Assembly (NCBI GenBank): GCA_031362565.1
Contig: JANLSU010000103.1
Span: 1 to 64,000, forward strand
Origin: a bacterium
Lineage (GTDB): Bacteria > Krumholzibacteriota > Krumholzibacteriia > G020349025
Length of the DNA stretch: 64,000 nucleotides
Direction of reading: 5' to 3'
In this document: positions 6,001 to 18,000 of the stretch, piece after piece
How the letters are laid out: the number at the start of each line of letters is the position of its first letter
Position numbering within the stretch: position 1 is the stretch's first letter
Program-made: the position numbers

Positions 6001-9000
6001 ACGAGCTGGACGGTGCTGCCGGTGGCGAGCTGGTGCAGCATGACGCGGGTTTGACCGGCATTCGCTTCTGCATACGCGACGAACTTGCCGTCTGGTGACA
6101 GGGCCGGCCAGCGCGCCTTGCCGGTCGAAGTGACGCGGGTAATGTGCAACGTGCCGCCGGCGGCCGGTGCCGGCGCCGCCTTGCGATGGCGCATGAACCA
6201 CGGCACGAGTCCAAATGCCAGCACGATGAGCGCCCATGCCGCCACCGCAAGCGGCGACGACGCGGCCCGCCGGCGCGGTGCGGATGCTGCCGGCGTGCCG
6301 GCGTGCACACCGGATGCAACGGACTCAACGGCAGGCGCATGGGCGCCGGAAGGCCAACTCGGCGCGGGCGTCGCGCCGGACGGCCACTGGACGGCAGGTG
6401 CCACACCCGAAGGCGCAGCATACGCCGCCGAAGCCGTGCCCGATTCCACTTCGCGCCTGAGCGCCCGCAGATCGATCGCCAGCTCCTTGGCGCTTTGGTA
6501 ACGCTCGTTCGGGTCCTTGGCCATCGCCTTGCGTAAGATGCGCGTCAGTTCCACCGGCGCATCGGGCCGCGCGACGTGCAGCGGCCGCGGCCACTCCTTC
6601 AGGATGGCATGCATGACTTCGATGGGCGATCCGGTCCCGAAGGCGCGTTCGGCGGTTGCAGTCTCGTAGAGGACTGCGCCAAGCGCGAAGATGTCGGCGC
6701 GTGCATCGACAGCCTCGCCGCGCACTTGTTCGGGCGCCATGTAACCGACGGTGCCCATGACCAGGCCGGGCATTGTCGGCGACGACCCGGACATCACACC
6801 CAAAGCACCGCTTGGCTGAATGACGGTCTCGGCGTTGGCGCCACCCGTGCCCGCCAAAGCCGCCGGGCCGCGATCCGCTTGCAGAAGTTTGGCCAGGCCA
6901 AAGTCCAGAATCTTGACGTTGCCGTCGGCACGGAACATTAGATTCTCGGGCTTCAGGTCCCGATGCACGACGCCGGCGGCGTGCGCTGCGGCCAGTCCGT
7001 CCGCCACCTGAACCCCGAGATCGAGCAACGGGCGCAGGTCGAGCGGGCCGCGCCGCAACCGCTCGCGCACCGTCTCGCCCTCGACGTACTCCATGACGAT
7101 ATAGTGATGGCCTTCGTGCTCGCCCAACTGATGGATCGTCGTGATGCTCGGGTGGTTGAGCGCCGATGTCGTCTTGGCTTCCTGGACGAAGCGTTGCAGG
7201 CGTTCGGGATCGGCGAGGGCGGCGGCGTTCAACAGTTTGATGGCGACCCAGCGGTCGAGCTTGGTGTCCTCGGCTTTGAACACGACACCCATGCCGCCGG
7301 CGCCGAGCTGGTCGCCCAAACGGTAGTGTGAGATGTTCTCAGGAGTGGCCACGGTGCGGCTCCCACGCGGCTGGAAAACCGCGCTAAGCAGACTCGATCC
7401 GGCGTTTGGCGTCAAGGTCTGGGCCCCTGGTGCCGGGCCCGGGCGTGGTCCTCTTCTTGCAGCACGCCGTTGCCCTTGGTTTTCGTGTTGTAACGTTCGA
7501 CTTCGCGAAGGGCTCGAGCACGATGAGCGTCGGATCGTTTTTTACCGCGACCCTGGGCACTTCGCTGCAGGAATTCTTGACGTTACCGCGCGATCGGGCC
7601 GCGGCTCTCGTCCGCGGTCGAATTCCGGACTTGCTGCACCTGCTGCGCGCCGGCGCGCCACCAGCGGACGCACTGGAGCCACGCCGCACCGTCCAATGGG
7701 GCAAGAGCCTGGAAGGCGCGCTCCTCGAGGCGCTGAAGCCGCAAGGGCTCGAACTCCAGAATCTGCGCGATCGCATCATCACCGATGGCTTCATGCGGTC
7801 CGAGCTCGACCGCGATCAGAACGTCTACTTGACCGAATTCTTCACCCGGGTGCTGACGCGCGCCGTTCCGGACCTCGTTTTCCAGCCGGCCCACGCGCGC
7901 GAAGTCGAAGTGGCACTCGAATGGGCGCGGCGCCACCGGATCGGCATCGCCACCCGTGGTGCCGGCAGCACCGCCATGGGCGGCGCGGTTCCAAACGACG
8001 GCGGCCTGCTGCTCGAGATGTCGCGCTTCGACCAAATTCATATCGATGTTGCGGACCAGGTCGCGGTGATCGGCGCCGGGGCGCGCCTGAAAACGATTCA
8101 CGGCCGTTTGGCGGCGGAAGGCCTCGAACTCACCACGTATCCATCGAACTTGGGTGGCACATTGGCCGGCTGGTTCAGCGCCGGTGGATTGGGACTCAAC
8201 TCGTTCACCCATGGTGCCGTACAAAACCAAGTGCGAGCGCTGTCGATGGTGTTGCCGCGCGGCGAACAGGTGCATTTCCATGCCGACGGGCGGTTGGATG
8301 TGCTTGCCCCGGAAGCTCAACGGCTCCCGAAGGCGGCGACCGCCAAATGGTTCGAGGCGCACGGCTATCCGGCGTTGACGCTCGCCGACCTGCCGCAGAC
8401 CGAGGGCCAGGTGGGTGTCATCCTGACGCTCACGATGGCAGTTCACAAGCTGCCGGAGCGCACTCCCTTCTATCTCGAAGTCGAAACCGACGGCCAAGCC
8501 ATCGAACTCGCGGCGCACGTCGCCCAAGCGGCCCAGAAGAATGGCGCCAAACCGGCGAACTTGAAGTTCTTGTCGGCCGCTCATGTCGCCGGGGTACGGG
8601 CGATTCGTGGCGACGCTAAACGGGCTTCGAAACCCGCCGTGTACGTCGACTTCGAAGGCGCCGACGAAGCGCAAAAATTCGCGCGCGGTCTCGACACCGC
8701 GCCGCACAAACCACAGAGCGACGAAGCCGAAGCCCGCCGCTGGTTCGCGGATCGCTTCCGCCCGCAACAGACGAAACGCTTGGGCCCCGGCTATCTCGCG
8801 GCCGAGATCCTCATGCCGGCCGAGCATCTGGCGGCATTTCAGGAGGCCGCGGTCAAGCTGGCGCACCGCGTCGGGGTGCATCTCGAAACCGAGGCCTACT
8901 ACTTTGGCGACGGCCGGGTGCTGGCGCTGCCGGGCTACCTGACGCGGGGGCCGCGCTCGGGTTTCCTGTGGGAGCTCGTGCTCGCGCCGATCTTGCTCGA

Positions 9001-15000: not shown

Positions 15001-18000
15001 ATTGCCGACGCCATGTTGGTGACGCTACGCCAGCAGGCCATGCTGTGTGATGCGGGCAGCGACCTGCGCTTCAACATGCGGCCGGGCGGCCGGCCGGGTA
15101 CGGGGGAAATGGGCGGCGTCTTCGAGGCATTCGTGGGCGTCGAAAGCGGCACCGTGACTCTCAACAATCGGTTCGGTGAGGCGGTGCCGGTGCGCCGCGC
15201 CGGGACCAAGTCGGAAGCGCTGCGCGTTCTCAAGACCGCAGTCAACGGCGCCCGCAAGAAAATTGGCGACGAGGCGCGGGCGCGGTTGCAAGCCGCCGAC
15301 GCGGCAGCGTTCAGCGGCCCGGCGCGCGAGGAATTCGTCGCCTGGACACTCGACAAGGTCCGTGAGTGGAGCTTCGACGAGTACCGCATGGTGGCCGAGT
15401 GGCTCTTGCCGCAAGCCGGCCAAAAGTCGCCGGCGCACTTCGATGCCGCACTCGGCATGCTAACGGAACTCCGCAAACGCCTGCACTTGGCCGACACGGG
15501 CGGCAAGTCGCTCGCGGCACTGCAATACATGACGGACGGCGGCTTCGAGTATGACGGTGAGCCCGAGGGCGGCATCTACCGCTTGCTGCATGCGGTGCCG
15601 CGGCTCTGGGACACCAAGGGTGTGGCGCCGTACGGGCGCATCGACGTAGCGACGCGCGCCGATCTCATGCCGCCTGGGGATCCATCACAAGCGCTGGTCG
15701 TCAACTTCGACGGCTTCGAGAGCGAACAGTTTGGCACCATTGAAGCGGCGCGCTTTGTCTCCGACGCCGTGGCGCGAGGTTGGCGGCGCTTCATCGGTTA
15801 CAACATGCGGGGCGGGCCGCGCTACGTGGGCACGAATACCGCCGACAGTGACGGCCGTCCAGCCGATGGCGTGCGCATCGATCTCTACGGCCGCCAGTTC
15901 GGCGACTTCATGGGTGCGCTCCTGGAAGGCGCCGACATCCGGTGCTACGGCCAAGGCCAAAGTCATGTTGGCATGAAGGCCGACCGCGGTTCGATCTTCG
16001 TGCTGCAGGACATCCTGAACACCGGGCTGTATGCCGCCCACGGCGGCACGCTCTCGATGTGGGATTCGGGCAGCCGCTTCGCGGTGGCGGGCCAGAACCG
16101 GGTGCATTTGGAAGATGGCACGACGCTCGCGCCGGGCCTGAAATCGATTCACTTTGGTTCGCCCAACGAGTACGCCTTCGAGTACTTGATGTCGGGTGGC
16201 GAGAACTCGCTGCACGTGGTGATGGGGCTCGAAAAACCGGATGCCAAGGGCCAACTGAACGGGCGCTTGCGGCCCTACGCCGGCAAGTTCTTCATGTCGG
16301 GCGCTGCCGCCGGCCGCGTCTATGTCTTCGATCCCACCCGCGCCCTCGAAGCCGGCCAGGTGCACGGCAATGCCGGCGAGCCGGTGACGGTGGAGGAGTG
16401 GGACGCGGAAGTCGGCCCGTTCATCGCCGCCGAAGCCGCCAAACGCAGCCTGCCGATGCAAGTCGTGCCCGGCGGTTTCCGGATCCAATTGGGCGGCGAG
16501 TGGCGCGACTACGCCTGCGGTGATGCCTTCATGCGCTACACGCCCATCCGGGTGCCGAAATCCATCCAACGCCAGGGCGTCGCACCGCCGGCACTCGTCG
16601 GCATGCTGGACGAGCTCTGAGGCGTGAACGAACCTTGGCCTGCGCTCAGCGAAACAGATCGCCGCTCAGGTACTTGAGCCCCGAGTCGCAAATGACCGTG
16701 ACGATGCGATGCCCGGGGCCCAACTCGCGGGCGCGTTGCAGCGCTACGAACACGTTGGCGCCCGACGAGATGCCGCCGAAGATGCCTTCGACACGCGCCA
16801 GTTGGCGGGCTGTTGCGTAGGCGTCGGCATCCGTGACCGCGACGATCGCATCCGCCAAATCGAGCCGGCAGATGGACGGCACGAAGCCCGGCCCCATGCC
16901 TTCCAATCGGTGGCCGCCCTCGATCGGCAAACCCGACAGCGCCCGCGAGGCGGCCGGCTCGATGGCGATGCAACGAACGCCCGGCACGCGCTCCTTGTAG
17001 ATCTCGGCGTTGCCCGAAAAACAACCGCCGGTGCCGACTCCCATGATGAATTCGTCGAAACGTTCGTCGAGGTCGCGTATGACCTCCTCGGCCATCGCGT
17101 GGTAACCGGACCGGTTGTCGGGGTTGTTGAACTGATCGGTCCAATAGGTGTTCGGGGCCTTGGCCAGCTCGCCGACGCGGACGATGAGTCTTTGGATCAG
17201 TTCGGCGGTCACGCGGTGGTCGACGCTCGGGAGCACGTCCAGAGTGGCCCCAAAGGCGCGCATCGTCTGCAGCTTCTCTTCGGCAAAGCAATCGGCGGTC
17301 GCGAAATGCGCCCGGTAGCCGCGCGTCGCGCAAACCATGGCGAGCGAACTGCCGGTGCTGCCGCCGGTGTAATCGATGATCGTGGCGCCGGGGCGAATCT
17401 GGCCGCGGCGTTCTGCGCCGTCCACCATGGCGTGCGCCATGCGGTCCTTCATGCTGCCGGTGGGATTGGCCCCCTCCCATTTGACATAGATCTCGGCGCA
17501 TTCCGGCCCGGCGAAGTGCCGGAGGCGCAAGAGCGGTGTGTTTCCGATTCCGGTCATGACACTCCTTTGCGCGCCTCTCGTACGGCGCTCACTTACTTCG
17601 ATTCGGTGCACGCGCCCCAGAACTCGTCGCCGCTGACGATACTCTTGGTGCCGTAGCCGTCGAGCGGCCAAGTCGCGTAGAACGCCGTGACATCAAGTCC
17701 GAGCGTCTTCACCGTGTCGCAAAGCTGCTTCGACCGTCCGGTGAGCGGTTTACCCGGCCGGTAAAAAAGCAGGTCACCGGTGGTCAGCACCTTCTGGCGC
17801 GGAAAATAGAAGATCAAGTACTCGTCGGTATGTCCCGAAGCGACGTTGAACACTTGGACCGTGTTGGTGCTGTCCGCGAAGGTGCGGCGGTCTTTGATGG
17901 TCTCGGTACGGAGCGGCTTCGGATCGCGCGCCAGGGCGTCGGGCCGCAGCTCGAACCGCGCCTGCACCACCGCTTCGATGAGCTGCACGGTCGTCGGCGG

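Follow-up and report, generated by a model that had tools for sequence, protein, structure and literature searches.

A glutamate synthase-like fusion protein with an internal amidotransferase cysteine and its flavoprotein neighbor in a Krumholzibacteriia genome

Two overlapping genes and their domains

The window analyzed here, a 64,000-nt stretch of contig JANLSU010000103.1, carries on its forward strand the genes g00130 (7430..10093; 887 aa) and g00131 (10090..16620; a 2176-aa precursor of 237 kDa), with the stop codon of g00130 overlapping the ATG of g00131. A preliminary description had reported a giant protein in which an FMN barrel precedes an amidotransferase with an internal Cys, together with a preceding FAD/Fe-S gene, and the open reading frames, motifs and Pfam matches agree with this. 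The two products can be divided into the modules A (FAD/Fe-S), B1 (degenerate barrel), B2 (FMN barrel) and C (Cys-Ntn amidotransferase and GXGXG), which are also encoded by free genes in relatives. Scoring of 8000 candidates gave 152 homologs of g00131 (E<=0.001), and motif counts for the giant proteins refer to the 120 of these that were listed. Since 114 of the 120 are full-length homologs (>=2000 aa), a chance or assembly read-through is ruled out.

The product of g00130 combines module A, a VAO/PCMH-type flavoprotein with an Fe-S dicluster, with a 2x[4Fe-4S] ferredoxin at its C-terminus; alignments of homologs suggest that its start is likely the ATG at 7523. Its FAD_binding_4 domain spans 7868..8278 (residues 147-283; Pfam E 1e-25), the first Fe-S dicluster (9416..9613; residues 663-728) is also found in free A, and the ferredoxin lies at 9839..9988 (residues 804-853).

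The precursor encoded by g00131 has the order B1-B2-C. B1 (10399..11496; residues ~104-469) is a degenerate (beta/alpha)8 barrel, paralogous to the FMN barrel but lacking the Cys cluster of the latter. B2 (12313..13374; residues 742-1095) is an FMN synthase barrel with the motifs EIKINQGAKPG, SPDPKHDIYSIED and ASGGLR and a four-cysteine Fe-S motif, CNQCGNCHLDCP (13108..13143; residues 1007-1018; 118 of the 120 listed homologs), a combination that marks the glutamate synthase class. Its reported resemblance to GltB was confirmed by Pfam (Glu_synthase, residues 742-945, E 4e-44), by PDB GltB matches covering residues 766-1081 and by hhalign against the GltB FMN domain (99.9%, E 7e-32). In the structure model of g00131, the B2 portion is of low confidence and no GltB chain is among the matches listed. 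The GXGXG beta-helix domain (15667..16569; residues ~1860-2160) falls below Pfam detection on its own; it aligns with the GltB C-terminal domain (95.6%, E 1e-8; hhalign), and the profile of this region matches FwdC and GltB chains. The amidotransferase-GXGXG half matched no Pfam or NCBIfam model, Glu_syn_central had no Pfam match in g00131, and the score against PRK11750, the canonical GltB family, was 79 bits (cut-off 1047).

Between B2 and the amidotransferase lies a variable Ala/Pro-rich linker (13375..13539; residues 1096-1150), which is 19-99 aa long (median 25; 115 measured of the 120 listed homologs) and has a column conservation of 0.15, beside 0.94 for the four residues that directly precede Cys1155 (EHDS, residues 1151-1154). 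EHDS and C1155 (13540..13554; Cys codon at 13552) represent the predicted self-processing site and Ntn nucleophile; they align with EGG+CGV of free C and resemble EHDA+CGVG of GltB. The D[SA]CRV motif, previously reported in every full-length homolog, was found in 120/120 listed homologs. The class II (Ntn) amidotransferase domain (13552..15204; residues ~1155-1705) contains HHRYPTNS at 1443, AHPF at 1464 and HNGE at 1476, with R1445, N1477-G1478 and D1522. All 120 listed homologs have the Cys nucleophile and the HxR, HNG and D motifs, as placed by alignment with free C and GltB, and the catalytic motifs overall are retained in 116-120 of the 120. This region is collinear with free C, which matches GATase_6; compared directly by profile, it resembles the GltB amidotransferase domain weakly (22%, E 0.001).

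Free C has a short leader before its Cys (EGG+CGV in 115 of 120; median 31 residues). The Cys of canonical GltB had been described as N-terminal, which needs amending, as a leader precedes Cys1 there too, seen in the 36-residue offset between chains 6s6s and 1ea0. If active, g00131 very probably cleaves itself at C1155, giving predicted chains of residues 1-1154 (125 kDa) and 1155-2176 (112 kDa). The amidotransferase could instead be silent and the chain uncleaved, with g00131 ammonia-dependent or working in reverse (glutamate-oxidizing) and g00130 passing electrons to ETF or quinone; this would fit the position of Cys1155, 1154 residues inside the chain, the nearest folds of g00130, which are dehydrogenases handing electrons to ETF or other acceptors, and the replacement of a conserved Arg by G1181. 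The Arg of the (H/N)RG motif is important in class II (Ntn) glutamine amidotransferases; no such Arg was found ~26-31 residues after the Cys, the Arg of NRGNG in free C being replaced by Gly (G1181) in 119/120 giants and Gly2 by Arg, and R1156 and R1185 could serve as stand-ins. However, Cys1155 and the four residues before it are strongly conserved, as are all glutamine-site motifs, and every other fused form of the system keeps an internal Cys, which argues that an uncleaved, silent enzyme is improbable.

A four-module system in several fusion states

By profile comparison, g00130 and g00131 together represent one of several fusion states in which a widespread, archaeal-type system of four modules occurs. 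Their parts match A, B1, B2 and C in order (100, 99.4, 99.9 and 100% in hhalign), with 551 columns aligned between g00130 and free A, E 8e-22 for B1 against free B1, and 806 columns aligned between the C half and free ~850-aa C proteins. In relatives, the modules are encoded by separate genes, as A/B/C, as A+ferredoxin/B1B2C (the state of g00130/g00131) or as single chains of 2500-3100 aa, and free genes follow the same order (L081, L088, L093, L118-L125). Every part has direct homologs among the uncharacterized ~850-aa proteins named "glutamate synthase domain 1/domain 3" and the A and B genes next to them. The free module genes differ from g00131 in having a short leader, the CGV and NRGNG motifs, additional ferredoxins and a Cys cluster in B1. 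The internal Cys is not unique to the giant family, since several single-chain relatives have one. A 1304-aa protein, P0219, was considered as another B-C fusion; its FMN part is out of frame, and it was treated as a frameshift artifact and left out of the counts.

In comparison with GltB large subunits (NADPH- and ferredoxin-dependent; 1ea0, 2vdc, 6s6s, 1llw and 7mfm), g00131 shares the Ntn amidotransferase, a second barrel, the FMN barrel with an Fe-S cluster, the GXGXG helix, a leader before Cys1, and the QVTNP and HDIYSIED loops (for GltB also in PMC8097209). It differs in domain order (barrel-FMN-amidotransferase-GXGXG, compared to amidotransferase-central-FMN-GXGXG), in a "leader" of 1154 residues, in a four-Cys motif rather than the [3Fe-4S] pattern, and in a VAO-type flavoprotein instead of GltD as partner. 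The term "permuted" used previously is not supported, because the order is that of the split operon A-B1-B2-C in fused form and it is the free ~850-aa proteins, not GltB, with which the C half is collinear. A circularly permuted canonical GltB would fit the presence of all four GltB domain types, here in the order barrel, FMN, amidotransferase and GXGXG, but circular permutation would not set the amidotransferase between FMN and GXGXG. Moreover, both trees place the giant, on very long branches, apart from GltB and beside the split and fused A-B-C forms (support 97/93 in the FMN-barrel tree), making such a permutation extremely improbable. The g00130/g00131 pair may have formed when one A-B1-B2-C chain was split. 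Fission is favored by the shared loss of the B1 cluster and the B2 ferredoxin and by an 89-support group in a quick tree that carries a long-branch warning; it is disfavored by the GltB-like SPDPKHDIYSIED kept in the giant, the split and fused forms having SPFPFH in common at this position, and a more careful FMN tree, built without five rows (three GltB2 and two rubredoxin-type), favors neither direction.

The "extra" N-terminal TIM barrel of the preliminary description does fold as a barrel in the model, with FMN hydroxyacid oxidases and IMPDH as structural matches (Z 18.9, rmsd 3.8/254), and is a paralog of the FMN barrel (B1 against B2 of g00131, 100% in hhalign). B1 carries YFSHAAITHPANDGLREE (10489..10542; residues 134-151), the counterpart of the QVTNP loop of the GltB central domain, which was found in 113/114 full-length homologs; T141-H142 correspond to T507-N508 of 1ea0 in a profile alignment, with the loop alone giving a weak match (6.5%, E 0.0056). 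This loop presumably has the ammonia-gate role that it has in GltB. Direct identity of the N-terminal barrel with the GltB central domain was unsupported (0.7% against a 3-sequence alignment, weak against a deeper one), direct alignment holding for the QVTNP-type loop only. On these alignments, B1 arose as a second copy of the FMN barrel and retained the QVTNP loop of the central domain, and profiles of the B1/B2 family link the GltB central and FMN domains, the relation of which is not settled in a 2021 review. In the archaeal-type split GltB1/GltB2/GltB3 (L126-L133), amidotransferase, ferredoxin-FMN barrel and GXGXG are separate genes, and GltB2 serves as the template for B1 (E 2e-50) as well as B2 (E 2e-82). 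There, one barrel has both the QVTNP loop and the FMN site, whereas g00131 divides these between two barrels and joins amidotransferase and GXGXG via a helical part.

The flavoprotein as candidate electron input

The model of g00130 (pLDDT 80) has a VAO/PCMH fold, as expected of FAD-dependent D-2-hydroxyacid dehydrogenases, with D-lactate dehydrogenase 8jdu (Z 26.0, rmsd 2.7/425) and LctD 7qh2 (Z 25.7) as the best matches. D-lactate and D-2-hydroxyglutarate dehydrogenases (LDHD, LctD, D2HGDH, GlcD) have the same whole fold (Z 25-26) and common FAD-binding motifs. Unlike these, g00130 has two Fe-S diclusters appended and lacks EHG[IV]G and GDGN.H, which are metal/catalytic motifs of D-2-hydroxyacid dehydrogenases and were found in 0/31 g00130-type sequences, with YVLGRW instead. 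A D-2-hydroxyglutarate or lactate dehydrogenase supplying electrons to the synthase, although attractive, is therefore given low odds. The GltD-type Fer4_20 and pyridine-nucleotide reductase domain was not found in g00130, where the fold is that of FAD_binding_4.

Evidence from gene context and fusion makes it likely that g00130 is the electron input to g00131. A is found upstream in all 44 loci that contain the giant N-terminus, which the other 23 of the 67 loci lack; the earlier claim of direct adjacency needs correction, as it applies to only 38 of the 44, with glutamine synthetase type III (GSIII) intervening in five and an SDH-type protease in one. A also belongs with the synthase because at least eight single chains join it to B1-B2-C (P0125, P0246, P0247, P0249, P0267, P0304, P0315 and P0335). 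In split systems a ferredoxin heads both B1 and B2; the giant lacks both, and g00130 carries one, which matches those of B1/B2 at ~97% (hhalign). The synthase might nevertheless be reduced by free ferredoxin or by a GltD-like protein, with g00130 co-transcribed for another reason. A GltD-like 467-aa gene does exist on contig C30; in addition, g00130 lacks the dehydrogenase motifs, and split relatives manage without A, no A ortholog being found in the 5/5 split B1-B2-C genomes tested (best E 1e-20). By sequence reading, though, the C30 gene adjoins succinate-dehydrogenase-like genes, and the synteny, the fused chains and the ferredoxin carried by g00130 make another reductant a poor prospect. 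The wider system does not always need g00130, as the electron-input neighbors of split relatives vary (A, EtfBA, Hdr/MvhD). Our guess is that g00130 receives electrons from ETF, quinol or an atypical organic substrate rather than NAD(P)H.

Predicted reaction and nitrogen metabolism

Motifs, free-standing homologs and gene context together support glutamate synthase identity, cleavage at C1155 and partnership with g00130. That g00131 is active as a glutamate synthase is quite probable, and the fuller reading, an active enzyme (Gln + 2-oxoglutarate + 2e- -> 2 Glu) of the four-module archaeal-type lineage in the form of a B1+B2+C fusion, is one we moderately favor. The precursor would cleave itself before Cys1155 into a two-barrel chain and an amidotransferase-GXGXG chain, which would remain associated as the equivalent of the B and C pair of split relatives. 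Cys1155 would hydrolyze glutamine, and ammonia would cross a gate formed by T141-H142 in a loop of B1 and S860-I861-E862 in a loop of B2, equivalent by alignment to GltB residues and assumed to act as they do, reaching 2-oxoglutarate at the FMN. Electrons may reach FMN by way of the 1007-1018 cluster, having left the g00130 FAD along the four Fe-S clusters of that protein.

The same chemistry could act on other substrates, as an amide-to-keto-acid transferase like N-methylglutamate synthase. According to PMC6237917, MgsA, MgsB and MgsC are of GltB1, GltB3 and GltB2 type and act with a GS-like partner, the gene of which lies beside them; the same three domain types occur there in three small proteins (300, 225 and 442 aa, best hits tabulated), without a second barrel and in a methylamine pathway context. 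Altered residues near Cys1155, long branches and the frequent presence of GltB alongside split systems (9/15) would be consistent with another substrate. However, glutamine-site and synthase motifs are intact, ammonium transporters adjoin the split systems L119, L120, L121 and L123, and the glutamine synthetase near the giant is of the ~770-aa GSIII_N type, not a ~430-aa GMAS ("type III" in another sense), so other substrates seem unlikely. This GSIII (35433..37745, reverse strand), 19 kb from g00131 and the only glutamine synthetase found in the genome, is the probable pathway partner of g00131. In 5/44 loci GSIII lies inside the operon, between both genes, which may reflect one event. Neighbors seen at giant loci were GSIII and rhomboid-type genes.

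The giant was again found in 5/6 family genomes, and now in 0/194 other genomes searched across the phylum, the one weak match (G029) being a split form. In line with its description as the only glutamate synthase-like protein, no Glu_syn_central, GATase_2 or GXGXG match, and no canonical GltB amidotransferase domain, was found in this 100%-complete genome, and tblastn of g00131 returned only itself. Among giant-bearing genomes tested, only 5/49 have the canonical GltB amidotransferase domain; in a separate count, in which genomes are incomplete and kin are not independent, GltB was also held by 5/16 giant-bearing and 9/15 split-C genomes, compared to 141/235 without the giant. Replacement of GltB by the giant is thus incomplete. 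Giant and split C never occurred together in 251 genomes, which carries no weight because only ~1 overlap is expected. With two glutamate-dehydrogenase-like genes and the GltD-like gene, this genome need not depend on the g00131 locus.

This bacterium appears to make glutamate with a fused enzyme that probably cuts itself in two; other microbes encode its parts in separate genes. No description of this architecture was found in the literature searched, most subscription papers lying outside that search. The lineage is common, apparently uncharacterized and missed by annotation, because the amidotransferase-GXGXG half of the giant matches no Pfam or NCBIfam model; nitrogen assimilation may therefore be misread in Eisenbacteria, Krumholzibacteriia, Thermoleophilia and some Planctomycetota. 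The flavoprotein seems to be of a kind not known to supply electrons to glutamate synthase, suggesting an electron-entry module distinct from those based on NAD(P)H and ferredoxin, and g00131 would allow Ntn self-processing to be tested cleanly, the "propeptide" here being a whole enzyme chain. More speculatively, and with considerable doubt, the system could be a third, undescribed class of glutamate synthase, a self-cleaving polyprotein that takes electrons from a VAO-type flavoprotein with a new donor rather than from NAD(P)H/GltD or free ferredoxin. The B1-B2 tandem would then be a living intermediate in the origin of the GltB central domain by duplication of a GltB2 barrel, after which the upstream copy would have lost FMN and Fe-S but retained the loop of the ammonia gate. 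Relatives of module C are widespread, with 7556/8000 candidates matching and Chloroflexota and Thermodesulfobacteriota the commonest in Atlas clusters.

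Reading frames and distribution

The g00130 ORF (7430-10093, + strand, 887 aa) is overlapped by the g00131 ORF (10090-16620, + strand), which encodes the 2176-aa protein called the giant here. The sole Pfam match of the giant is Glu_synthase at residues 742-945, and residues 766-1081 are matched by PDB chains of GltB, the canonical glutamate synthase large subunit. The preliminary description had placed a predicted processing site at EHDS|C1155 (bar, cut before Cys), with further motifs downstream, and all were found in the sequence at those positions. As that description also had it, further GltB-type domain matches were absent from the genome. 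Within the family, 5 of 6 genomes carry the giant, against 0 of 194 others searched in the phylum. The genome has one glutamine synthetase, of type III (GSIII, 35433-37745 of the window), two glutamate-dehydrogenase-like genes and, on contig C30, a 467-aa GltD-like gene (L134:5591-6991) immediately ahead of succinate-dehydrogenase-like genes.

A protein search that scored 8000 candidates yielded 152 relatives of the giant; among the matches listed, 114 of 120 are at least 2000 aa long, with identities of 54-81%. A GTDB scan gave 67 loci, titled Krumholzibacteriia/Latescibacterota, Eisenbacteria, Thermoleophilia and other Actinomycetota, Planctomycetota and one Acidobacterium. Frameshifted pieces of the giant at loci L021, L023, L047, L052, L062, L066 and L067 are probably assembly indels, and genome G137 seems to carry two copies. 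While g00130 had been described as always directly upstream, its homologue is upstream on the same strand at all 44 loci that include the giant N-terminus but adjacent in 38, with GSIII in between at 5 loci and an SDH-type protease at 1. The SDH/ClpP-like serine protease gene lies at L014:6589-7506.

Split and fused relatives

By profile alignment with split genes and single chains from other genomes, the giant represents one fusion state in a system of four modules. The modules are A (FAD/Fe-S flavoprotein), B1 (degenerate barrel), B2 (FMN barrel) and C (Cys-Ntn amidotransferase plus GXGXG). In a class-wide search, a single ORF encoding two synthase barrels turned up in two genomes. Genome G029 has a split form of three genes, namely A (638 aa, FAD_binding_4 plus Fe-S), B (1045 aa, in the order ferredoxin, barrel, ferredoxin, FMN barrel) and C (859 aa, EEGG|CGVIG, GATase_6 plus GXGXG). 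In genome G116 all modules form a single A-B1-B2-C chain of ~2830 aa (L080:7610-16096, - strand) with an internal QTN|CGVA, and further such chains of 2500-3025 aa (P0246, P0247, P0249, P0267, P0304, P0315 and P0335) each have an internal Cys motif. In protein P0282 (3152 aa) the four modules are truly rearranged, to C-A-B1-B2. B is further divided at eight loci from the G138 class (G138 being a Thermoleophilia record): 7 of the 8 have separate genes for B1, B2 and C, and the stretch of the eighth ended before B1. Free C is found very often (7556 matches among 8000 candidates).

In profile alignments, g00130 aligns with A up to residue ~745 (100%) and its last ferredoxin with the ferredoxins of B (97%); giant residues 126-469 align with B1 (99.4%), the giant FMN barrel with B2 (99.9%) and residues 1151-2160 with C over 806 columns, Cys on Cys (100%, E 2e-52; by BLAST 27%, E 1e-46). 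The gene boundary in the window falls between the ferredoxin of B1 and the B1 barrel. In an FMN-barrel tree, giant, split and fused forms grouped together (97/93), separate from GltB and from GltB2, the archaeal-type single-barrel protein; the giant branch, of length 4.1, was not resolved inside the group.

In some A-B1-B2-C chains the FMN barrel carries altered motifs (QGAKMG, ELKTG) and there are long inserts, and P0282 has a signal-peptide-like leader ending in ALRP ahead of its modules and a C-terminal extension. Divergent GltB-sized ORFs (L151-L157, 1530-1570 aa, DxDA|CAI or EHDA|CAL) show weak GATase_2 scores and no QVTNP match; ORFs of this type occur in about 45 of 251 sampled genomes. 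Other genomes of the class encode Glu_synthase as a stand-alone protein (460-750 aa, in some cases with rubredoxin domains; L068-L079, L083-L086), and those checked had no adjacent amidotransferase gene.

Proposed electron entry and the extra barrel

The flavoprotein part of the g00130 model (pLDDT 80) is matched over its whole length by D-lactate and D-2-hydroxyglutarate dehydrogenases and LctD (Z 25-26). EHG[IV]G and GDGN.H, motifs of FAD-dependent D-2-hydroxyacid dehydrogenases, were absent from 31 of 31 sequences, which have YVLGRW instead. Module A would be the electron entry, the best evidence being its fusion into the enzyme in other lineages. A search of 5 split genomes found an A orthologue in 0 of the 5, which shows that the entry module can be exchanged.

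Ammonium transporters adjoin the split systems L119, L120, L121 and L123, and other split-system neighbors are MvhD-, MetF- and Hdr-like genes, EtfBA (L090) and NAD synthetase (L089, L091). At L118-L125, B1-B2-C genes lie among MvhD-, MetF-, MetV- and HdrABC-like genes, downstream of ammonium transporters, a context possibly indicating glutamate synthesis linked to an Hdr-type electron-bifurcating complex. At L090:494-4816, EtfB-EtfA is immediately upstream of a B protein that has neither ferredoxin domain.

A model of giant residues 28-1098 (pLDDT 70) predicted the FMN barrel poorly; its N-terminal barrel resembles FMN hydroxyacid oxidases and IMPDH (Z 18.9). By profile alignment (100%, 409 columns), B1 and B2 are paralogues. 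A Cys cluster is mostly kept in free B1 and absent from the giant, as from every fused form examined. When compared with aligned GltB sequences collected here, B1 matched the central domain (97.7%, E 2e-12) and the FMN domain (99.1%), as did GltB2 (98.5%, E 2e-15, 285 columns, and 100%, respectively); B2 matched the central domain partially (84%, 131 columns), and the two GltB domains compared directly gave 26%. The N-barrel of the giant itself matched the central domain at the QVTNP loop only (6.5%, E 0.0056), and the link to that domain therefore runs through B1. This loop is in the upstream barrel in GltB (468-529 of 1ea0) and in the giant family (AAITHPANDGLREE, 113 of 114), stands before the FMN site in GltB2, and was not seen in B2. 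In GltB, T507-N508 and S976-E978 form the gate; a literature search on this role found nothing useful. A gate in the giant is predicted, as is its electron path. Between the barrels, at the place of a ferredoxin in split B, the giant has a less conserved all-beta insertion (residues ~621-740, window 11950-12310) that had no family match.

Predicted processing and relation to glutamate synthases

Among the matches listed, HHRYPT, GAHPF, HNG[EDQ], TDTE, EIKINQGAKPG and SPDPKHDIYSIED occur in every giant (120 of 120), while 118 keep the four-Cys motif and 116 ASGGxR. Ntn enzymes require a free amino group and strip their own leaders. Free C has EGG|CGV in 115 of 120 sequences behind a leader of median 31 residues, and for A. 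brasilense GltB the numbering of chain 6s6s runs 36 ahead of that of mature 1ea0; processing before Cys is therefore the rule in this group. The giant linker (19-99 residues, conservation 0.15) closes with four residues conserved at 0.94, the pattern expected of a kept processing site, and the giant is predicted to cleave itself. NRGNG has its Arg in 111 of 115 free C sequences, but 119 of 120 giants have Gly there, with Arg at position 2. The exchange counts against the predicted activity; it could be a swap that compensates, or it could reflect a changed function.

The giant is predicted to work like GltB, yet falls outside GltB on score, order and central domain. The main functional rival is an N-methylglutamate-synthase-like enzyme, since N-methylglutamate synthase can be built from the same domains, according to PMC6237917. 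The system is real, conserved and unusual, and the giant is a variant glutamate synthase, not a system of a new kind. Single-domain archaeal ORFs are noted in PMC8097209, whose described forms are limited to those using NADPH, NADH and ferredoxin. PMC1635734 only lists GLT1 inteins and has no bearing on the giant, whose architecture was not found described in a literature search whose coverage excluded most subscription papers. The canonical GltB amidotransferase domain was found in 5 of 49 giant-bearing genomes tested (49 of the 67 loci) and, at E<=1e-40 in a 251-genome class sample, in 5 of 16 giant-bearing, 9 of 15 split-C and 141 of 235 giant-free genomes, which, in incomplete and related genomes, is a tendency and not exclusion.

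Elsewhere in the window, a 2084-aa ORF (19922-26176, + strand) after a DegT aminotransferase has four GT2 glycosyltransferase domains, TPR repeats and a methyltransferase-like part, and the 5' part of a long ORF (47313-49967, + strand) reads, from its translation only, like a TPP-riboswitch leader of the CCTTTGAACCTGAT type.
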